From contig JAHLVW010000084.1 in the NCBI GenBank assembly GCA_019058275.1, positions 1-15,297 on the forward strand: a DNA stretch of 15,297 bases. The letters run 5' to 3'. The position numbers were made by a program, and so were the translations under genes. Under the pieces are notes generated by a model that searched no databases, was not told where the DNA came from, and was given only the letters and a program-made list of their open reading frames with translations. The stretch is from Candidatus Heimdallarchaeota archaeon (lineage in GTDB: Archaea; Asgardarchaeota; Heimdallarchaeia; JABLTI01). Positions 3,038 to 9,716 of the stretch are shown here, one piece after another; within the stretch, counting starts at the first letter, position 1, and the number at the start of each line of letters is the position of its first letter.

Positions 3038-4351
3038 TTAGAGCAGTTCATCTACACTTCTTCCTCTATTGTGTAAGCGCATTTTTAGTTCTGCCATAAG
3101 GTCTGCTCTTTTGAATGTATCTTCATCAACACCATCAGATGTGATACTTAATGCTTGATTTAGATAACGATTAAGTTGCAGGATATTACTGATAGTATCA
3201 TCTTCTATTTTTGAGCAGATAACTGTACTCATGTGCTCTGGCGATACTTTTTCAAAGAAGATATCAAATGCATCTATCTTAATGTGGCCTTCTCCTCCAA
3301 TTCTTACTTTTCCTAATTTGTTCATATATTCTTCTAAATTGATTTTTCTCAATGTTGCTTCAATTGATTGTAGAATATCTGGATTTCCTCCTTGTTGAAC
3401 AGCACCTACTACTAATTCTACATTTTCTGAATATACTGCTATTGCTACAAAACCAGCATTATTATCTAAAGTGGCTTCGATTATATCAGTTAATCTTACT
3501 GCTGTCTTTTCTCTAATTTTATCAGCATCAGTCTTTTTCATAGGTTTACTTATTGATGGTGGTGATACCATTGATTCACTTGCTTCAGTAGGCGGTGAGC
3601 TTATCGTAGGTGGCATAACTGCTGGAGGTTTCTGTGGTGGTACTGAAGGTTTACTTACAACAGGTGGTGTTACAGCTTTCTTTGGTGGTGTTTTTAGTTT
3701 AGATGTATCTACTTTCACAGGTTTCGTTAAGAATGACTCTTCTACTACTGGAGGTGCAACCTTAGTTACAGTAACTGGTGCTGTTACTGGTTTTCTTTCT
3801 ACAGTTAGTTTTGACATCTTATGTGGTAAATTGTCTAATAAAATTCTCTGGAAAATTTGGTTTGGGCTATCAGTATAGATACTCGTTATAGTTTTAACGA
3901 TTTCACCTGGAAAAATGTTATCTAGTGGTGCTAATAATTGTGCAACATGCTCTAATCCGTTTTTCAGTTGAGCTTCCATACCGGGATCGATTTTATTGAA
4001 TAGGAGATATGCTTTTACACCTTTTAAATGATTTACTACACTTTTAGTCCAAACTGAAAAGTAATTGGCAGTTTCTTGATATTTCAAAGAATTCTGAACA
4101 TCAACAACATAAACTATAGCGCATGCATCTTTTACAAGCTCAATATTGCCAATATATCCTTGCCTGAATTTTTTACCGCCTCCTGTATCAATGATTAAGA
4201 AATCAGATCTTAAGAAATCGTGATCATATTTAGCTATACCTCTTGTAGGAGGAATTTTCTGTAGTTGGGGTGGATTTTTCTTTTGGAAAAACCTTTGATA
4301 AAGTGCTGTTTTTCCTGCTCCGTCCAATCCTATTAGTAATATTTTCTGCAT
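3038..4351 (-). CDS. Rag/Arf-like small GTPase with Pro-rich linker and C-terminal roadblock-like domain
   Basis: G1 GLDGAGKT, G2 PTRG, G3 DTGGG, G4 NKID and a Rag-like G5 TSIY. Residues ~177-275 are Pro/Thr/Ser/Lys-rich. Residues ~280-405 show an alpha-beta-beta-alpha-beta-beta-beta-alpha pattern like a roadblock domain. Confidence 0.9.
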   Translation of the reverse strand: MQKILLIGLDGAGKTALYQRFFQKKNPPQLQKIPPTRGIAKYDHDFLRSDFLIIDTGGGKKFRQGYIGNIELVKDACAIVYVVDVQNSLKYQETANYFSVWTKSVVNHLKGVKAYLLFNKIDPGMEAQLKNGLEHVAQLLAPLDNIFPGEIVKTITSIYTDSPNQIFQRILLDNLPHKMSKLTVERKPVTAPVTVTKVAPPVVEESFLTKPVKVDTSKLKTPPKKAVTPPVVSKPSVPPQKPPAVMPPTISSPPTEASESMVSPPSISKPMKKTDADKIREKTAVRLTDIIEATLDNNAGFVAIAVYSENVELVVGAVQQGGNPDILQSIEATLRKINLEEYMNKLGKVRIGGEGHIKIDAFDIFFEKVSPEHMSTVICSKIEDDTISNILQLNRYLNQALSITSDGVDEDTFKRADLMAELKMRLHNRGRSVDELL

Positions 4352-4720
4352 TATTGATCACAATGGGAGGAGAGTTTTCTCACATAAGATATTCTTTTTA
4401 GAATTTTATTCTGTGTTGTGCTAAAACACTTCAAGTATTTCTTTTTATGGTCAGCTTTATTATTTTTTCCCAACTAAAAACACTTATTGTCTAGGTATAA
4501 TTAATCTTTAAATTAATATTACTTATACTCAAATTGAGCTGCTTTTCATTTATTTTAGTTACCATTCAACAAATGGTTTCAATATTTCTGCATAAAAACC
4601 AAAACTTCAGCTATGAATTTCCTATAAGGAACTATTTTTATTGCTGTTTGTCCGATTTTTATTATATCGAGAACCTATCACATTTGAAATTGAAGGATAT
4701 TCTATTCTGGAGGAAAAAAA

Positions 4721-5686
4721 GTGATCCAAGCTATATGGATTATCACTGAAACTGGACAATGTATTTTCAGTCACAAGTATGTTACACTAGATATTGACGA
4801 TCAATTGATTGCTGGTTTACTTACTGCTTTTGATGCTTTTTCAACTGAAAGTGGTATTGGTGGTGTACAACAAATCGCAGGTGAAGATAATCAATTTAAC
4901 TATGGGGCATCAGGCAAATTACTTGTTGCAGCTTTAGCAGATAAAAGTGATAATAGTAAATTAGTTGAAAACCTCATGACTAAAATTGCTGATTTATTCC
5001 AAGAAAAATATGCTGTTTATCTTCAAGATGTAGGTTTTGTTGATCTCAATGTATTTAATGGTTTTGAAGAAGAAATTGATCAGATTCTGAAACCAAAAGT
5101 TTACAGAAGAGGTGTTTTTTCAACGCTTTTTGCTACCTTTGTTACGATTGCATTAACTGCTGGTGTCTTATTTTCACTACTTAATTTCATTCAAGCACAA
5201 GAAGCAATTTTCATCTTATTCCTTGCATTCATTCCTGGGCTTTTCATTGGTGCAATAATTGCTGGTAAGAGCTCTTATGGTTTGATTTCCTCTACAATTG
5301 GAGTCATCCCCATTATATCACTAACTGCATATTATATCGTTATTAATACTATTCAAATTGCTCAAGATACTGGTGCAGATATCCCTTATGATACTATGAT
5401 CTTTACCATTGTATTAATGGCAGAGCAATTCATCACAATAGCAATATTGAGCGGTATTTTAGGTGGCGGATTTATAGATAGACGAAGATTATCGCCACTT
5501 TCTAAAAGTAGTAAACCTCTCGAAGTGTTTGCAGCAGGTGTTCCTATAACTACCCTTGATCTTGGAACCCAATTGCAACAACAACAATATCAGCAAGAGG
5601 TTGATACCCAACAGAATTATCAAACTGAATATAATGCTGAAAGTTCTTCACTTGTGGATGAACAAAAAACTGAATGGGATAGTTAA
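4721..5686 (+). CDS. Longin-domain membrane protein (longin + 4 TM + Gln/acidic tail)
   Basis: MIQAIWIITETGQCIFSHKY...DDQLIAGLLTAFDAF...IADLFQEKY...FNGFEEEIDQIL is the longin (sedlin/sigma-adaptin-like) pattern seen in Asgard proteins. Four hydrophobic segments lie at aa ~132-252. GTG start. Confidence 0.82.
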   Translation: MIQAIWIITETGQCIFSHKYVTLDIDDQLIAGLLTAFDAFSTESGIGGVQQIAGEDNQFNYGASGKLLVAALADKSDNSKLVENLMTKIADLFQEKYAVYLQDVGFVDLNVFNGFEEEIDQILKPKVYRRGVFSTLFATFVTIALTAGVLFSLLNFIQAQEAIFILFLAFIPGLFIGAIIAGKSSYGLISSTIGVIPIISLTAYYIVINTIQIAQDTGADIPYDTMIFTIVLMAEQFITIAILSGILGGGFIDRRRLSPLSKSSKPLEVFAAGVPITTLDLGTQLQQQQYQQEVDTQQNYQTEYNAESSSLVDEQKTEWDS

Positions 5687-5718
5687 ATCCCATTTGCTTC
5701 TCATTTTAGGGATGACCA

Positions 5719-6636
5719 ATGACGAATGACAAAATAACTGCTGATTCCCAATCAAAGGAATTGTTCAATGAGAATTCACAATTAGAAGAAGAGGAAATAA
5801 TCTATTCCGCTCTTGGTAGTCAAGTTAGAAGAGAAATCATTTCATTTATTCAAGGAAATGAAAAGGTAGGTTTTTTGGAGTTAAGAAAGAAGTTTGATTT
5901 GAAAGTTGGATCCTTATATCATCAATTGAATTCTATGAAGGATTTATGGCATCAAGATGAAAATAAAAAGTATTTTTTAACTGATTTGGGGAAAGTAGCA
6001 TATAATTTAATGATTAGAAATAGGGATTATATTGTAGTTTCTAATGTAAAAGCGTCAAGATCAGTTGAAGCGAGAAAGAGTCAAACCTTCTTTGGTAAAA
6101 TCTACCAAGGTCTAATTTTCTTTTTCCTTCCCCGAAAAATTATCCAATATTTGGTTTCTGAACCTTTAAGAACCTTATTTGAAGGATTAATTATTATTGG
6201 AGCGATGCTCTTTTTCTCAATTGACAGTAGTTATGTCTTAGTTGGTTTTTATCCTTTGCAAGTAGATGATTGGTATTATTGTCTTATTGGTGTTTTCAGT
6301 CTTTGGTTATTTTTAGGATTAGTAAGTGAAACCTTCAAAACCATTCTTTATAAGAGAGAATTTAATCCTACTAAATTGCTAGCAGTAACACCTTTTACTT
6401 TGATTCCAAGCCTACTGGTTTTATTCCTTCTATGGCTTCAAACAAAAGTTGTTGCGACATTCATGTTTCTTGATGGTCAAATACTTGCATTAGTTACACA
6501 AATCTGGTCATTATCTCTTATGACAACAGCAGTTAGTCAAACAGAAGAATTAACAATGAATAAATCAAGTCTAATCGTATTATTTACTTTTTATTTGACA
6601 TATGTGATATCCTTTGTTTTATATGGGATTAGTTAA
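5719..6636 (+). CDS. Winged-HTH (ArsR-like) fused to a Yip1-like 5-TM domain
   Basis: IYSALGSQVRREII...FLELRKKFDLKVGSLYHQL...YFLTDLGK is a wHTH. The C-terminal part has FLPRKII, ~5 TM helices and IWSLSLMTTAVSQTEELTMNKS, typical of the Yip1 domain. It starts 32 nt after the longin gene, so the two are likely co-transcribed. Confidence 0.8.
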   Translation: MTNDKITADSQSKELFNENSQLEEEEIIYSALGSQVRREIISFIQGNEKVGFLELRKKFDLKVGSLYHQLNSMKDLWHQDENKKYFLTDLGKVAYNLMIRNRDYIVVSNVKASRSVEARKSQTFFGKIYQGLIFFFLPRKIIQYLVSEPLRTLFEGLIIIGAMLFFSIDSSYVLVGFYPLQVDDWYYCLIGVFSLWLFLGLVSETFKTILYKREFNPTKLLAVTPFTLIPSLLVLFLLWLQTKVVATFMFLDGQILALVTQIWSLSLMTTAVSQTEELTMNKSSLIVLFTFYLTYVISFVLYGIS

Positions 6637-6650
6637 GCTTTCAGTCAAGA

Positions 6651-7352
6651 TTACTTTTTCTTGCTGGTGCTTTTTGTTGTTTTCGTTTTACTAGTTGTTT
6701 TCTTTGTGCTCTTTGATGTAGTTGTCTTTTTAGGGCTTGCTGGTTTTTTGGTTTTCTTTTTGCTTAATGGTTGCTCTGATAAAATCTGATAGACCCATTG
6801 ACCATCAGAATAGCCTATCCATCTCCCAGGGAGGATTCCAACATAAATTAAATCCTGAGTTACCCAATAGGCTTCTCCTTCAGTTACACCTATTGCTTTC
6901 TGAATATCTGGAAGATAAGCATGTGGTTTACCATCTAAAAAGTTAACAACTTTCTTAACAATTTCTGGATTCCAGCGGTCTAAAATTGCTGTTTCGGTTT
7001 CCTCGACTTCTTCAGCTCCTTTCTTTTTCTTCTTCTTTTTCTTTAGTTTTTTCTTTGGTTCAAGTTTTTCCTTAGCATCAGATTCTTTTGCATCTTTCAT
7101 TTCTGTCAAAAATAAATTTATGATACTAGGATTTTCCAAATGAGAAACAAGATACGTCCCCGCATATTCCTTTTTATTAAAATCAGCTGATTGTTGCATT
7201 AGCGTTTCCCGCTGCTTCTTTCTAGCATCCGGAGTAACTATTAAGCGGATCATCTCTTCTTTTTCATCAACAATCATTCCTACAGGTGAATCTATAAGTT
7301 CATCTGGTGTGCATTCGACTAATTTCTTACCAACTAAGGAATATACTATCAA
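6651..7352 (-). CDS. Multidomain basic protein: gelsolin-like N-domain, poly-Lys linker, wHTH, Lys/Thr/Ser-rich tail
   Basis: Residues 1-85 loosely fit one gelsolin repeat. Residues 100-111 are KKKLKKKKKKKK, ~127-192 are wHTH-like (LPDIQKAIGVTEGEAYWVTQDLIYVGILPG), and 197-233 form a K/T/S tail containing SPKK. TTG start. The ORF is secure but the domain calls are tentative. Confidence 0.7.
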   Translation of the reverse strand: MIVYSLVGKKLVECTPDELIDSPVGMIVDEKEEMIRLIVTPDARKKQRETLMQQSADFNKKEYAGTYLVSHLENPSIINLFLTEMKDAKESDAKEKLEPKKKLKKKKKKKKGAEEVEETETAILDRWNPEIVKKVVNFLDGKPHAYLPDIQKAIGVTEGEAYWVTQDLIYVGILPGRWIGYSDGQWVYQILSEQPLSKKKTKKPASPKKTTTSKSTKKTTSKTKTTKSTSKKK

Positions 7353-7500
7353 TCTTTTTCCATCCAGTATTTATTATAAAATAAATCAACAAGATGAAAT
7401 AATAGTTTTTTTATTAGGTACTTATTAAACATATTTAGGAGTTTTTATATACTCCAGAGTATATTTCCATGAAGAAGCTATGTAAAAAGTGATTGTAGAT

Positions 7501-7710
7501 ATGAGTTCAAGTAAAAAAACACCTACCAAAAAAACATCCCTACTTGATGATGAAATTGAAGCTAGCTGTCCACATTGTGGTAGTGAGCATGTTTATGGTA
7601 TTAGTAGAGTTGTAGGTTATTTCTCGAAAATTGACTCATGGAATAACTCAAAATTTGCTGAGTTAAAGCAAAGACAAAAAGGTAATTATTGGACCAAAGA
7701 TGAGATTTGA
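7501..7710 (+). CDS. Stand-alone NrdD (class III ribonucleotide reductase) C-terminal Zn/glycyl-radical domain protein
   Basis: CPHCGSEHVYGISRVVGYFSKIDSWNNSKFAELKQR matches the NrdD C-terminus CPxCG...SRxxGY...WNxxKxxExxxR. ATG 7501 is preferred over GTG 7489. Confidence 0.85.
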   Translation: MSSSKKTPTKKTSLLDDEIEASCPHCGSEHVYGISRVVGYFSKIDSWNNSKFAELKQRQKGNYWTKDEI

Positions 7711-7806
7711 TGTGTTTTTACTCTCAAAAAACGGTTCATTTTATGTCAAAATGAAAAGTCTTTAAAGTGATTTTGTCCTAATTTAAATACTGTTGGAGAT
7801 AGAATT

Positions 7807-8103
7807 ATGATTTCGCAAAAGCAATTTCAATCGACTCTTAAGAAACTTTCCGGATTTGAAGGAGTTAGAGGAGTAATTATTACGAACAAAGAAGGTTTAC
7901 CAATATCAAGTGATATTGAAACTGATAAAACAGAATCTGTTGCTGCGCTTGTTTCATCCTTAGTTGGAAAAGCAACCCAAGCAGTTGAACAATTAGATGA
8001 AGGTGAATTAAACTTCTTTACTATTGACACTACTAAAGGTGAAATTCTAGTTGCTCCTGAAAACGACTATATTCTCATTGTTCTTAAAGGTAAAAAGAAA
8101 TAA
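7807..8103 (+). CDS. Roadblock/LC7 (MglB/LAMTOR2-like) protein
   Basis: [17 protein letters not shown]...AALVSSL...[17 protein letters not shown] is the canonical roadblock signature. GGAG lies upstream of the ATG. Confidence 0.93.
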
Positions 8104-8111
8104 AAAATCCA

Positions 8112-8137
8112 GAAGCTTATAATTTTTCATAAGCTTC
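8112..8137. terminator. Hairpin between the convergent roadblock genes (possible bidirectional terminator)
   Basis: A perfect 9-bp inverted repeat, GAAGCTTAT-N8-ATAAGCTTC, sits in the 78-bp gap between the two stop codons. Confidence 0.5.
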
Positions 8138-8181
8138 ATTATCTGTTTCTTATGAGTTTTATTTGAGCAGTTATAAAGTTA

Positions 8182-8673
8182 TTAGAATTTCTCAAGTTCT
8201 TTTAGAGCTTCTTCTAAGTTGTCTTCCATGGATTCATGAGCAGCACTGGCTGCTTTTGCAGCAGCGGAGGTTGGAAATTGAATCTTTTCTGAAAGGAATT
8301 CATTTAAGAGTTTTTCAATTTCAGAAGCCTCTCTCTTTAATACTAACCGAACTAAGCCGATATTAACATCATTGTCTGTTATGACACAGAGTATCCCTTT
8401 ACCACAGCTCGCAGCAAAAATCTTACCTTTACCAAATTCAGAAGAAACGATATCCAAATCACCTAGATCAAGGTTTACACCCTGTTCTTCACTGGCAACG
8501 AAAACTGCACTGGCAATTGCTCCTACTCCATCTACATCTATTGGAAAATAGGAGAATTTTGATACGTGGGCAATTGTTAATCCAGTTCTATCAACCAGAA
8601 TTACTTTTCTTATGCCAGCTTCTGCTTTGATAATTTTACTTAAGACATTGTCGAAGGCTTTTACGTTTATCAA
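8182..8673 (-). CDS. Roadblock/LC7 (MglB-like) protein with C-terminal extension
   Basis: GIRKVILVDRTGLTIA...GAIASAVFVASEEQG...EFGKGKIFAASCGKGILCVITDNDVNIGLVRL is a roadblock domain, followed by an Ala-rich linker and an acidic amphipathic terminal helix. TTG start. Confidence 0.92.
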   Translation of the reverse strand: MINVKAFDNVLSKIIKAEAGIRKVILVDRTGLTIAHVSKFSYFPIDVDGVGAIASAVFVASEEQGVNLDLGDLDIVSSEFGKGKIFAASCGKGILCVITDNDVNIGLVRLVLKREASEIEKLLNEFLSEKIQFPTSAAAKAASAAHESMEDNLEEALKELEKF

Positions 8674-8891
8674 ATTCCTGACCTCTTGATCAGTTCTTTT
8701 AATTTAACTTTGAATTAAATTAACTTACCTTACTAATATTTTTGCAATCGGATTTATAAGGATTCATGTTTCTGTAATTTCTGTACAGATGGTTTTCGTC
8801 CTAATTTTCCACTTTGGTTACTTTTTTATTAGTATAGCTTTTATTTTAGAACTAGTTTAACAATATCTAATCATTTGGAGTTGTCATTACC

Positions 8892-9716
8892 TTGAGTAAA
8901 CCCGAGAAAGGGAAGGATACTAAATATATTATAACTGTTAGGGCACTATGTGATATTTGCAAAAATGTTGACACATTTCAGATTCCCACTAAAGATCTTT
9001 TACCTCATATTGGAGGATTATACCAAGTCTCTACAATTCATCATTGCAATGACAATAAGGAAATGGTCATAAATATTGTTCTTGATCGTAACTTTGCAGT
9101 TAGGCAATCATCTGTTTCTCCTTTTGTTGCAGAACGCGAAATTGACCGTTGGTCACCAGAGAAAGTTAATAATATTAGATTTTTAGTAAAGCAAGTCAAG
9201 GAAGCTGATAGAGTTGTTCAAGCTGTGCTTTCAAATAGAACAGTGGTTATTGCTAGTAATAATAAGACCTTTGTTACAAAGATTGTGCATACTTTAGAAT
9301 TGTTTTCACCTACAAGGTTTCCACAATCAGTAGATTGGACTGATAAAGTACTTGAGGATAAAAAAATAATTGGAACATCTCCTGCAGTAGCGAAGGATTA
9401 TAAAAATGTAGTTCTTGTCAATTTAGACACAAAAAAAGTTACCAATGTAAAACCAGCTAATTACTGTCAAACCTTCTTAGATAGTTTAGTTACTTTGGAA
9501 CCAATTGGAATGGCATATGCTGCTAGATTAAAAATTAGCAATCTTATTGAGTTTGCAAAAATGCTAATTGATTTAAGTAAAGAACCTGAGATTGGACCAA
9601 GAGCTATTGATCTTGTAAGAATGGATGTTAGTGCAGATGCTTTGGAGCTAATTCTAGAAATAGTTGATGGTTTTGATCCCACTGCTACTCAGATAATTAA
9701 AGAGAATTGGATTTAA
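8892..9716 (+). CDS. Putative DENN/folliculin-C-like protein with N-terminal Zn-binding domain
   Basis: The N-terminus has CDIC...HHC...VLDRNFAVR. Residues ~95-185 (VVQAVLSNRTVVIASNNKTFVTKIVHTLELFSP...IIGTS...VVLVNLDTKKV) follow the cDENN pattern. The C-terminus is helical. TTG start with GGAG upstream. Confidence 0.65.
   Translation: MSKPEKGKDTKYIITVRALCDICKNVDTFQIPTKDLLPHIGGLYQVSTIHHCNDNKEMVINIVLDRNFAVRQSSVSPFVAEREIDRWSPEKVNNIRFLVKQVKEADRVVQAVLSNRTVVIASNNKTFVTKIVHTLELFSPTRFPQSVDWTDKVLEDKKIIGTSPAVAKDYKNVVLVNLDTKKVTNVKPANYCQTFLDSLVTLEPIGMAYAARLKISNLIEFAKMLIDLSKEPEIGPRAIDLVRMDVSADALELILEIVDGFDPTATQIIKENWI

Follow-up and report, generated by a model that had tools for sequence, protein, structure and literature searches.

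The locus described here raises the question whether a tight group of eukaryote-like genes in an archaeal genome preserves an ancestral Rag-Ragulator-folliculin module or came together more recently. It lies in a stretch of 15,297 nucleotides from Candidatus Heimdallarchaeota archaeon, hereafter the window (contig JAHLVW010000084.1 of assembly GCA_019058275.1, C79 among the 118 contigs of a 4.12-Mb genome with about 32% G+C), where eight open reading frames (ORFs) of alternating orientation occupy positions 3038–9716. Within these eight consecutive genes in 6.7 kb, the first-pass annotation had recognized a small GTPase that carries a Rag-type G5 motif (TSIY) and ends in a roadblock-like domain, a pair of stand-alone roadblock proteins (here Robl98 and Robl163), a membrane-anchored longin protein (longin-TM, for its transmembrane (TM) helices), a DENN-like protein and a Yip1-like membrane protein (here the wHTH-membrane protein, for its winged helix-turn-helix). 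All eight ORFs are present, and our analysis bore out each of these assignments except the last, for which the membrane domain stands and the Yip1 call stays weak. As to the larger proposal of an ancestral module, its parts, their folds and their clustering within the genome were confirmed; deep synteny and a Ragulator-like role of Robl163 were not. We consider it probable that the locus is a loose, lineage-restricted neighbourhood of eukaryote-like small-GTPase-system genes that was assembled within one family, and that no proto Rag-Ragulator-folliculin operon was inherited. Within this neighbourhood, the divergent unit of the GTPase and longin-TM genes, together with the wHTH-membrane gene, is the most plausible working pair.

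The first-pass annotation had cautioned that such genomes carry many paralogues of these domains and had suggested weighing the cluster against the chance expectation from paralogue counts. Profile searches and Pfam scans indeed tallied 63 such genes in the genome, namely 23 small GTPases, 25 longins of this type, 8 roadblocks and 7 DENN proteins. When these 63 genes were placed at random in 5000 trials, five genes within 7 kb never occurred (0/5000) and four classes within 7 kb were obtained in 0.08% of the trials. For this genome, a group of five such genes drawn from four classes in 7 kb greatly exceeds what chance would produce (P<0.001), and no other cluster of this kind in it is as dense. 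The tendency extends to the rest of the genome, which without the window contig contains 14 close pairs where 6.0 would be expected (P 0.008); for pairs of mixed class, the count is 9 against an expectation of 4.2 (P 0.03). Both the five-gene grouping and the excess of mixed-class pairs elsewhere speak against a pure juxtaposition, in which local rearrangement would have brought together unrelated paralogues in a young family while their partners are encoded elsewhere.

The conservation of the neighbourhood was followed through the window's family, which comprises 12 genomes in two genera. Clear orthologues of the DENN-like protein are confined to this family, in ten genomes of the same genus (65–95% identity) and one of the second genus (50%). 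Of the 10 same-genus genomes, 8 show the block in colinear order. Wherever the assembly of a family genome covers it, the divergent pairing of the GTPase and longin-TM genes is kept, even through an inversion in the genome of the second genus (G011). In that genome, the block of GTPase and longin genes has flipped and is found 4 kb away from the rest; the gene set still falls within about 9 kb. Two other genomes depart from the common order: in G006, 34 kb separate the DENN gene from the other cluster genes, and G003 appears to lack most of the longin-TM and wHTH genes. In the latter genome, only the last ~65 codons of the wHTH gene are left, and they abut what remains of the longin-TM gene, its initial ~78 codons (locus L007, G003:C220, 7651–8062), which reflects either a deletion of about 1.6 kb or an assembly artefact. 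Unrelated genes, i.e. the flanking AlaX and ORF757, the gene for a tail fragment of NrdD and that for a Lys-rich protein, are equally syntenic in the family, which counts in favour of a mere juxtaposition of neighbours.

Beyond the family, the picture is one of dispersal, which likewise favours juxtaposition. Searches of 10 kb by tblastn and profiles around 15 loci of Robl163 orthologues (families f2, f3, f4, f6 and f7) recovered no other cluster genes, the other cluster genes were absent within 10 kb from three loci of distant GTPase orthologues with long flanks, and three loci of Robl98 orthologues in f2 and f4 had no cluster-type neighbours within 8 kb. Moreover, Robl98 orthologues lie far from Robl163 orthologues in 5 of 5 genomes checked from three families. 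The neighbourhood is lineage-restricted, young and confined to one archaeal family. Synteny across related genomes had been named by the first-pass annotation as a test of its proposal, and since the neighbourhood is not conserved beyond the window's family, the stronger reading of the typed genes as one machine largely founders on that test.

The organization of the cluster points in the same direction as its distribution. The GTPase gene (3038–4351, reverse strand) is separated by a divergent intergenic region of 369 bp (4352–4720) from the longin-TM gene (4721–5686, forward strand), and the wHTH-membrane gene (5719–6636, forward strand) starts 32 bp 3′ of the latter. Because they are co-directional and only 32 bp apart, the longin-TM and wHTH-membrane genes probably form one transcript. 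The genes for Robl98, Robl163 and the DENN-like protein follow 2–4 kb beyond this group. As the alternating orientations had already indicated to the first-pass annotation, this is not one operon: the cluster genes fall into at least five transcription units, and no conserved 8-mer except an A/T run is common to the three divergent promoter regions in the 10–11 family genomes compared. The alternation of orientations is consistent with pure juxtaposition, and the number of transcription units and the lack of a common conserved promoter word count against a single machine.

One member of the putative working pair is the GTPase, a protein of 437 amino acids (aa) in which a Pro-rich linker of about 100 aa joins a Rag/Gtr-like G domain (aa 1–180) to a roadblock domain (aa ~278–437). 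Its top Pfam match is Gtr1_RagA (PF04670; E 2.3e-13, 50.5 bits at a cut-off of 22), with Arf at 39.2 bits. A profile of nine GTPase orthologues matched RagA (3e-13) and Gtr1 (9e-13) in the PDB over the whole G domain (residues 2–188), whereas the match to Arl3 (2.8e-11) covers residues 3–122 only, i.e. two thirds of the domain; the PDB entries 8yl2 and 8zla, described as 'GTP-binding proteins', outscore RagA and Gtr1 with this profile. Judged by these comparisons, the G domain appears most similar to Gtr1/RagA among named solved proteins, by a modest margin. Its motifs are GLDGAGKT (G1), DTGGG (G3), NKID (G4) and TSIY (G5). Hence, the catalytic glutamine of G3 (DxxGQ) is absent, and it is absent throughout the family, where the motif reads DxGG[GA]. 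Distant full-length orthologues (24–31% identity) possess DLGGQ, HKFD and TSI[YF], and since they keep the DLGGQ motif, the glutamine was lost in the window's family. The G5 motif TSIY, and the HKxD form of G4 in the relatives of this GTPase, match Rag sequences. Next to the GTPase gene there is no second Rag-like gene; a convergent Rag-like pair sits elsewhere in the genome (C55:246189–249174).

For the C-terminal 160 aa of the GTPase, sequence methods failed: Pfam gave no roadblock match to this domain, and its alignment to a roadblock profile with hhalign reached a probability of 17%. The roadblock fold was therefore settled by the structure model alone. The AlphaFold2 (AF2) model of aa 278–437, with a predicted local distance difference test (pLDDT) value of 79, displays the element order alpha-beta-beta-alpha-beta-beta-beta-alpha, which is that of a roadblock. 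Foldseek with this model retrieved Roadblock3 of MK-D1 as best match (7e-6), followed by MglB, a Thorarchaeota roadblock, the C-terminal domains of SpGtr/Gtr and RagA, and LAMTOR2, so that the model identifies this part of the protein as a predicted roadblock domain. TALE repeats also surfaced as relatives of the domain through summed weak profile matches in the PDB, which we regard as an artefact.

The DENN-like protein (8892–9716, forward strand) comprises a zinc-binding all-beta domain (aa 13–77) and a DENN domain (aa ~89–272). Its AF2 model has a pLDDT of 87.7, and the top 19 PDB matches found with Foldseek are all DENN proteins (E 4e-5 to 1e-3). Structure comparison with VIA placed the DENN domain of folliculin (3v42_A) first, with a Z-score of 14.7 over 167 residues at 3.4 Å, followed by SMCR8 (14.1), C9orf72 (13.4) and DENND10 (13.3), while the best non-DENN fold scored 6.6. 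In line with this, the protein and most of its listed homologues carry a precomputed Pfam 38 match to PF27109, which is named SMCR8_C in the Atlas table. According to the model, the product is a zinc domain followed by a DENN fold of the FLCN/SMCR8 type (cDENN and dDENN). Residues 13–77 form six beta-strands of zinc type with a CxxC...HxC motif conserved in the family consensus; they contain no longin helices, and no longin (uDENN) part was detected on this chain. The zinc-type domain thus stands where DENN proteins normally carry their longin domain, and the protein illustrates that a DENN domain can exist without its longin half. A longin-bearing DENN paralogue is encoded in the same genome, namely a 379-aa protein on contig C69 with a Folliculin N domain (25.2 bits, cut-off 23.3). 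The N-terminal zinc domain (aa 19–84) also occurs as stand-alone ORFs of 78–116 aa with 32–36% identity in another family (e.g. G037:C9:20868–21068 and G033:C52:258119–258319).

The longin-TM protein contains a longin domain (aa 1 to ~125), about four TM helices (aa ~136–243) and a polar, Gln-rich tail. A profile of the N-terminal domain built from 19 relatives matched almost only longin proteins in the PDB, with MON1 (2.5e-4) and Bet5/TRAPPC1 (2.3e-3) ahead of the sigma subunits of AP-3/4, delta-COP, SR-alpha and Fuzzy. Fuz_longin_1 of Pfam matches 9 of the 19 relatives (best 4.3e-5), and hydropathy indicates about four TM segments after the longin domain. From these profiles, the protein is best described as a four-helix membrane anchor that carries a putative longin domain of the MON1/Fuz type. 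GTPase-activating protein (GAP) longins of the FLCN/NPRL2 type are marked by a GP motif and an arginine finger (PMC12290439). In the family, the early Gly12 is invariant and no proline follows it, so that no GP motif is seen, and the nearest profiles are those of longins of the guanine nucleotide exchange factor (GEF) type. By profile, the domain therefore appears MON1/Fuz-like and not demonstrably of the FLCN/NPRL2 type; a feature search in the Atlas scored 0.82 for a longin domain, a value that is a lead only.

In the wHTH-membrane protein, an ArsR-type winged helix (aa ~30–95) is fused to a Yip1-like membrane domain that contains five or six TM helices. Among 17 orthologues, HTH_20 was matched in 7 and DUF7347 in 7. 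The window protein reaches 15.4 bits against Pfam Yip1 (E 0.017, cut-off 28.6) and covers positions 7–171 of the 173 profile positions; Yip1 was matched at E<=1 in 5 of the 17 orthologues (best 6.6e-6), and a precomputed PF04893 match is present on 2 of 54 homologues. We regard the Yip1 assignment as weak. A link from this protein to Rab binding would depend on a match below threshold, and the Yip1 family also includes many prokaryotic members.

Both stand-alone roadblock proteins score above the threshold of Robl_LC7 (cut-off 23). Robl98 (98 aa; 7807–8103, forward strand) is a minimal roadblock of the LC7/LAMTOR type, with 77.0 bits (9e-22) for Robl_LC7 and 29.9 bits for LAMTOR5 (cut-off 27), and given its length, the last helix is probably missing. 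Robl163 (163 aa; 8182–8673, reverse strand) reaches 40.7 bits (2e-10) and has, like MglB, both a C-terminal helix and a tail of acidic residues. The best PDB matches of Robl163 are indeed MglB proteins (1e-4); against the NCBIfam MglB model it scored 29.7 bits, far under the cut-off of 200. The two roadblock proteins are 89–99% identical across the family, compared with 50–80% for the products of neighbouring genes, an unusually strong constraint for small proteins.

A Ragulator-like role of Robl163 becomes less likely in view of its orthologues. Robl163 was matched in 79 of the 83 genomes of the class, mostly as a single copy. In four genomes of family f3, the orthologous gene directly precedes a gene for a GTPase of about 200 aa, which is followed by another roadblock gene, and in one genome of family f7 the same GTPase gene is its convergent neighbour. 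This GTPase matches MglA in the PDB with 8.5e-36, the next family following at about 1e-9. The genome of the window encodes an MglA homologue as well (C11:49941–50498; 60% identity to the f3/f7 GTPase, 5.7e-38 to MglA in the PDB), and no roadblock gene was found within 8 kb of it; the surroundings (C11:45793–50498) contain a gene for a Ras-like GTPase about 2 kb away and a longin gene about 3.6 kb away. Because of the adjacency to mglA in f3 and f7 and because MglB proteins are its best solved relatives, Robl163 is best read as the putative MglB partner in an MglA/MglB switch, with the genes for the two proteins separated in this family. The idea of Robl163 as a dedicated dock for the Rag-like GTPase is weakened by this.

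Assuming that the reading of the locus as a loose, family-specific neighbourhood holds, its products could cooperate as follows. The Rag-like GTPase would dimerize through its roadblock domain, and the longin-TM protein would engage it at the membrane, offering a longin platform of the exchange-factor type, similar to Mon1-Ccz1 or TRAPP. Since the glutamine of G3 is missing, GTP hydrolysis by this GTPase would require help in trans. The DENN-like and roadblock proteins may be trans-acting regulators that are shared with other GTPases of this paralogue-rich genome, and Robl163 would chiefly act as MglB-type GAP of the MglA homologue encoded on C11. The predicted complex of the G domain with GTP and the longin domain received a score of 0.00 against a mark of 0.32, which counts neither for nor against binding.

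Several observations weigh against this interpretation. The strong clustering within the genome could still mean that the whole set works together in this family, and synteny at the level of a family cannot separate selection from short divergence time. The pairing of the GTPase and longin-TM genes is itself seen in the window's family only, and the GEF-type assignment of the longin domain leans on weak profile matches (E 2.5e-4 at best). In addition, the adjacency of the genes for MglB and MglA is known from f3 (four genomes) and f7 (one genome) only, and the Robl163 orthologues in f2, f4 and f6 are followed by conserved genes for a KaiC-like ATPase and a protein of about 264 aa instead of mglA (e.g. 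L052, 10267–11901).

We compared the locus to linked genes of these classes described for other Asgard archaea. Liu et al. described Asgard DENN proteins with expanded paralogues of non-eukaryotic architecture within lineages of Loki, Hel and Heimdall as well as FLCN-like longin-DENN proteins in Heimdallarchaea (bioRxiv 10.1101/2020.10.19.343400). They further reported a putative operon, conserved in most Asgards, that comprises genes for a LAMTOR1-like roadblock protein, a Rab-like GTPase and a DENN protein and was proposed to encode a folliculin-like regulator (bioRxiv 10.1101/2020.10.19.343400). As this operon is conserved in most Asgards, these gene classes do tend to be linked for functional reasons, which speaks against a merely accidental cluster. 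The window shares with the operon the organism group, the three gene classes and the proposal of a proto folliculin/Ragulator-like system. In contrast to the operon GTPase, which is Rab-like and adjacent, the GTPase in the window is a Rag-like roadblock fusion encoded 4.5 kb away; the window also adds a zinc domain on the DENN protein, a membrane-anchored longin and the wHTH-membrane protein, and its arrangement occurs in one family instead of most Asgards. The operon study reportedly appeared later in Nature (2021).

We also considered the Robl163-DENN gene pair as the published operon and rejected it, as a Pfam scan of the window revealed no Rab-like GTPase and the operon sits at C55. There, at about 260.2–262.6 kb, a gene for a Ras-family GTPase (3.4e-33) adjoins that for a 504-aa DENN paralogue in the published arrangement of Liu et al., and the DENN proteins of the window and of this operon are paralogues with 28–30% identity. 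The operon is part of a super-cluster of 16 kb (C55:246189–262630), which also contains the convergent Gtr1/RagA-like pair (120 and 84 bits, the strongest in the genome) and a gene for a large longin protein. Smaller clusters combine DENN and GTPase genes on C7, GTPase and longin genes on C66, and roadblock and longin genes on C105. On the other side, the GTPase genes of MK-D1 generally lie outside operons with roadblock or longin genes (Tran et al., PMC10933270), as juxtaposition would have it. On balance, pure juxtaposition is an unlikely explanation of the locus, albeit the most probable of the alternatives to a loose neighbourhood with a working pair.

More doubtful still is that the six typed genes encode one membrane-tethered machine that follows Rag-Ragulator-FLCN in its logic. 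In this scenario, the GTPase would dock via its roadblock domain on Robl98 and Robl163, the longin-TM and Yip1-like proteins would anchor the assembly, and the longin and DENN proteins would switch it as a split folliculin. A good deal of the evidence is compatible with such a machine: every fold call that it needs holds, the genome contains no denser cluster of this kind (P<0.001), the gene set remains within about 9 kb after the inversion in the second genus, the DENN protein lacks a longin domain of its own while a separate longin protein is encoded nearby, and the missing catalytic glutamine fits reliance on a trans-acting GAP. Besides its restriction to one family and its many transcription units, however, one of the two proposed docks is best read as an MglB, whose orthologues have MglA partners in other families, the DENN gene lies apart from the rest in G006, and the longin-TM and wHTH genes appear largely deleted in G003. 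Furthermore, the longin domain resembles that of MON1/Fuz and shows no GP motif, and no LAMTOR1-like anchor was recognized in the cluster. A minimal version, in which the Gln-less GTPase sits on the four-TM longin protein, the MglB- and LC7-type roadblocks serve as scaffold and the longin and zinc-DENN proteins act as 'split folliculin', is the least probable of all and improbable in our view; if true, it would be the first concrete native pairing of GTPase and regulators for Asgard Rag-like proteins.

The locus was also compared with characterized systems. With Rag/Gtr, the GTPase shares the architecture of a G domain and a C-terminal roadblock domain, and Rag/Gtr proteins are the closest characterized G domains; in contrast to them, it lacks an adjacent second Rag paralogue and the glutamine of G3 and carries a linker of about 100 aa between its domains. 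As in Ragulator, full-length and truncated stand-alone roadblocks are present, but a recognized LAMTOR1-type anchor is missing and one of the roadblocks is best read as an MglB. Among DENN folds, those of FLCN, SMCR8 and C9orf72 come closest to that of the DENN-like protein, whereas the longin and DENN domains reside on separate proteins and the longin is MON1/Fuz-like, different from FLCN-FNIP and GATOR1. Unlike the Rag-Ragulator-TOR system, the window implies no TOR pathway.

Two prokaryotic systems offer further parallels. Robl163 resembles MglB of the MglA-MglB pair known from Myxococcus xanthus and Thermus thermophilus in its C-terminal helix and acidic tail, and MglB proteins are its best solved relatives, but the mglB-like gene of the window is unlinked from mglA on C11 and lies between genes for an LC7-type roadblock and a DENN protein. 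GTPase-roadblock fusions have been described in MK-D1 (Prometheoarchaeum) (Tran et al. 2024, PMC10933270), with which the window GTPase shares the order of GTPase and roadblock domain, and Roadblock3 of MK-D1 (PDB 9jue) is the best structural match of its C-terminal model. Whereas GTPase genes are generally unclustered with roadblock or longin genes in MK-D1, they are clustered in the Heimdall family of the window.

The two remaining ORFs of the cluster are of another type than the GTPase-system genes. The product of 6651–7352 (reverse strand), a Lys-rich protein of 233 aa, contains 11 lysines within 12 residues and a K/T/S-rich tail; Pfam and NCBIfam scans matched no family to it, and its gene is syntenic in the family. 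The 73-aa product of 7489–7710 (forward strand) matches Pfam NRDD (E 1.9e-10) over positions 519–561 of 562 and combines a basic leader with the C-terminal part of class III ribonucleotide reductase that holds the zinc ribbon and the glycyl-radical tail. This NrdD-tail gene lies 96 bp upstream of the Robl98 gene on the same strand and is syntenic family-wide, with no nrdD body nearby. Just upstream of the cluster, the window encodes a VapB/PIN (VapC) toxin-antitoxin pair (748–1367), which adjoins the GTPase gene in G008 as well, and a membrane histidine kinase with HisKA and HATPase_c domains (1745–2887).

In summary, the parts of this locus are members of known Asgard families, and their arrangement is new and lineage-specific. 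The locus would come as no surprise to specialists and provides no evidence for an ancestral Rag-Ragulator-folliculin module. Since the cluster is young and a roadblock that looks 'Ragulator-like' is probably the MglB of an MglA switch encoded elsewhere, such clusters are not readable as ancestral modules without deeper synteny. The pairings of Asgard GTPases with roadblock, longin and DENN proteins have been stated as unknown (PMC10933270, PMC12290439), the GTPase partners of Asgard longins being left open in the latter work (PMC12290439), and gene neighbourhoods are almost the sole lead to them. What the locus offers is a short list of possible partners for a single Rag-like GTPase from those archaea that stand nearest to eukaryotes.

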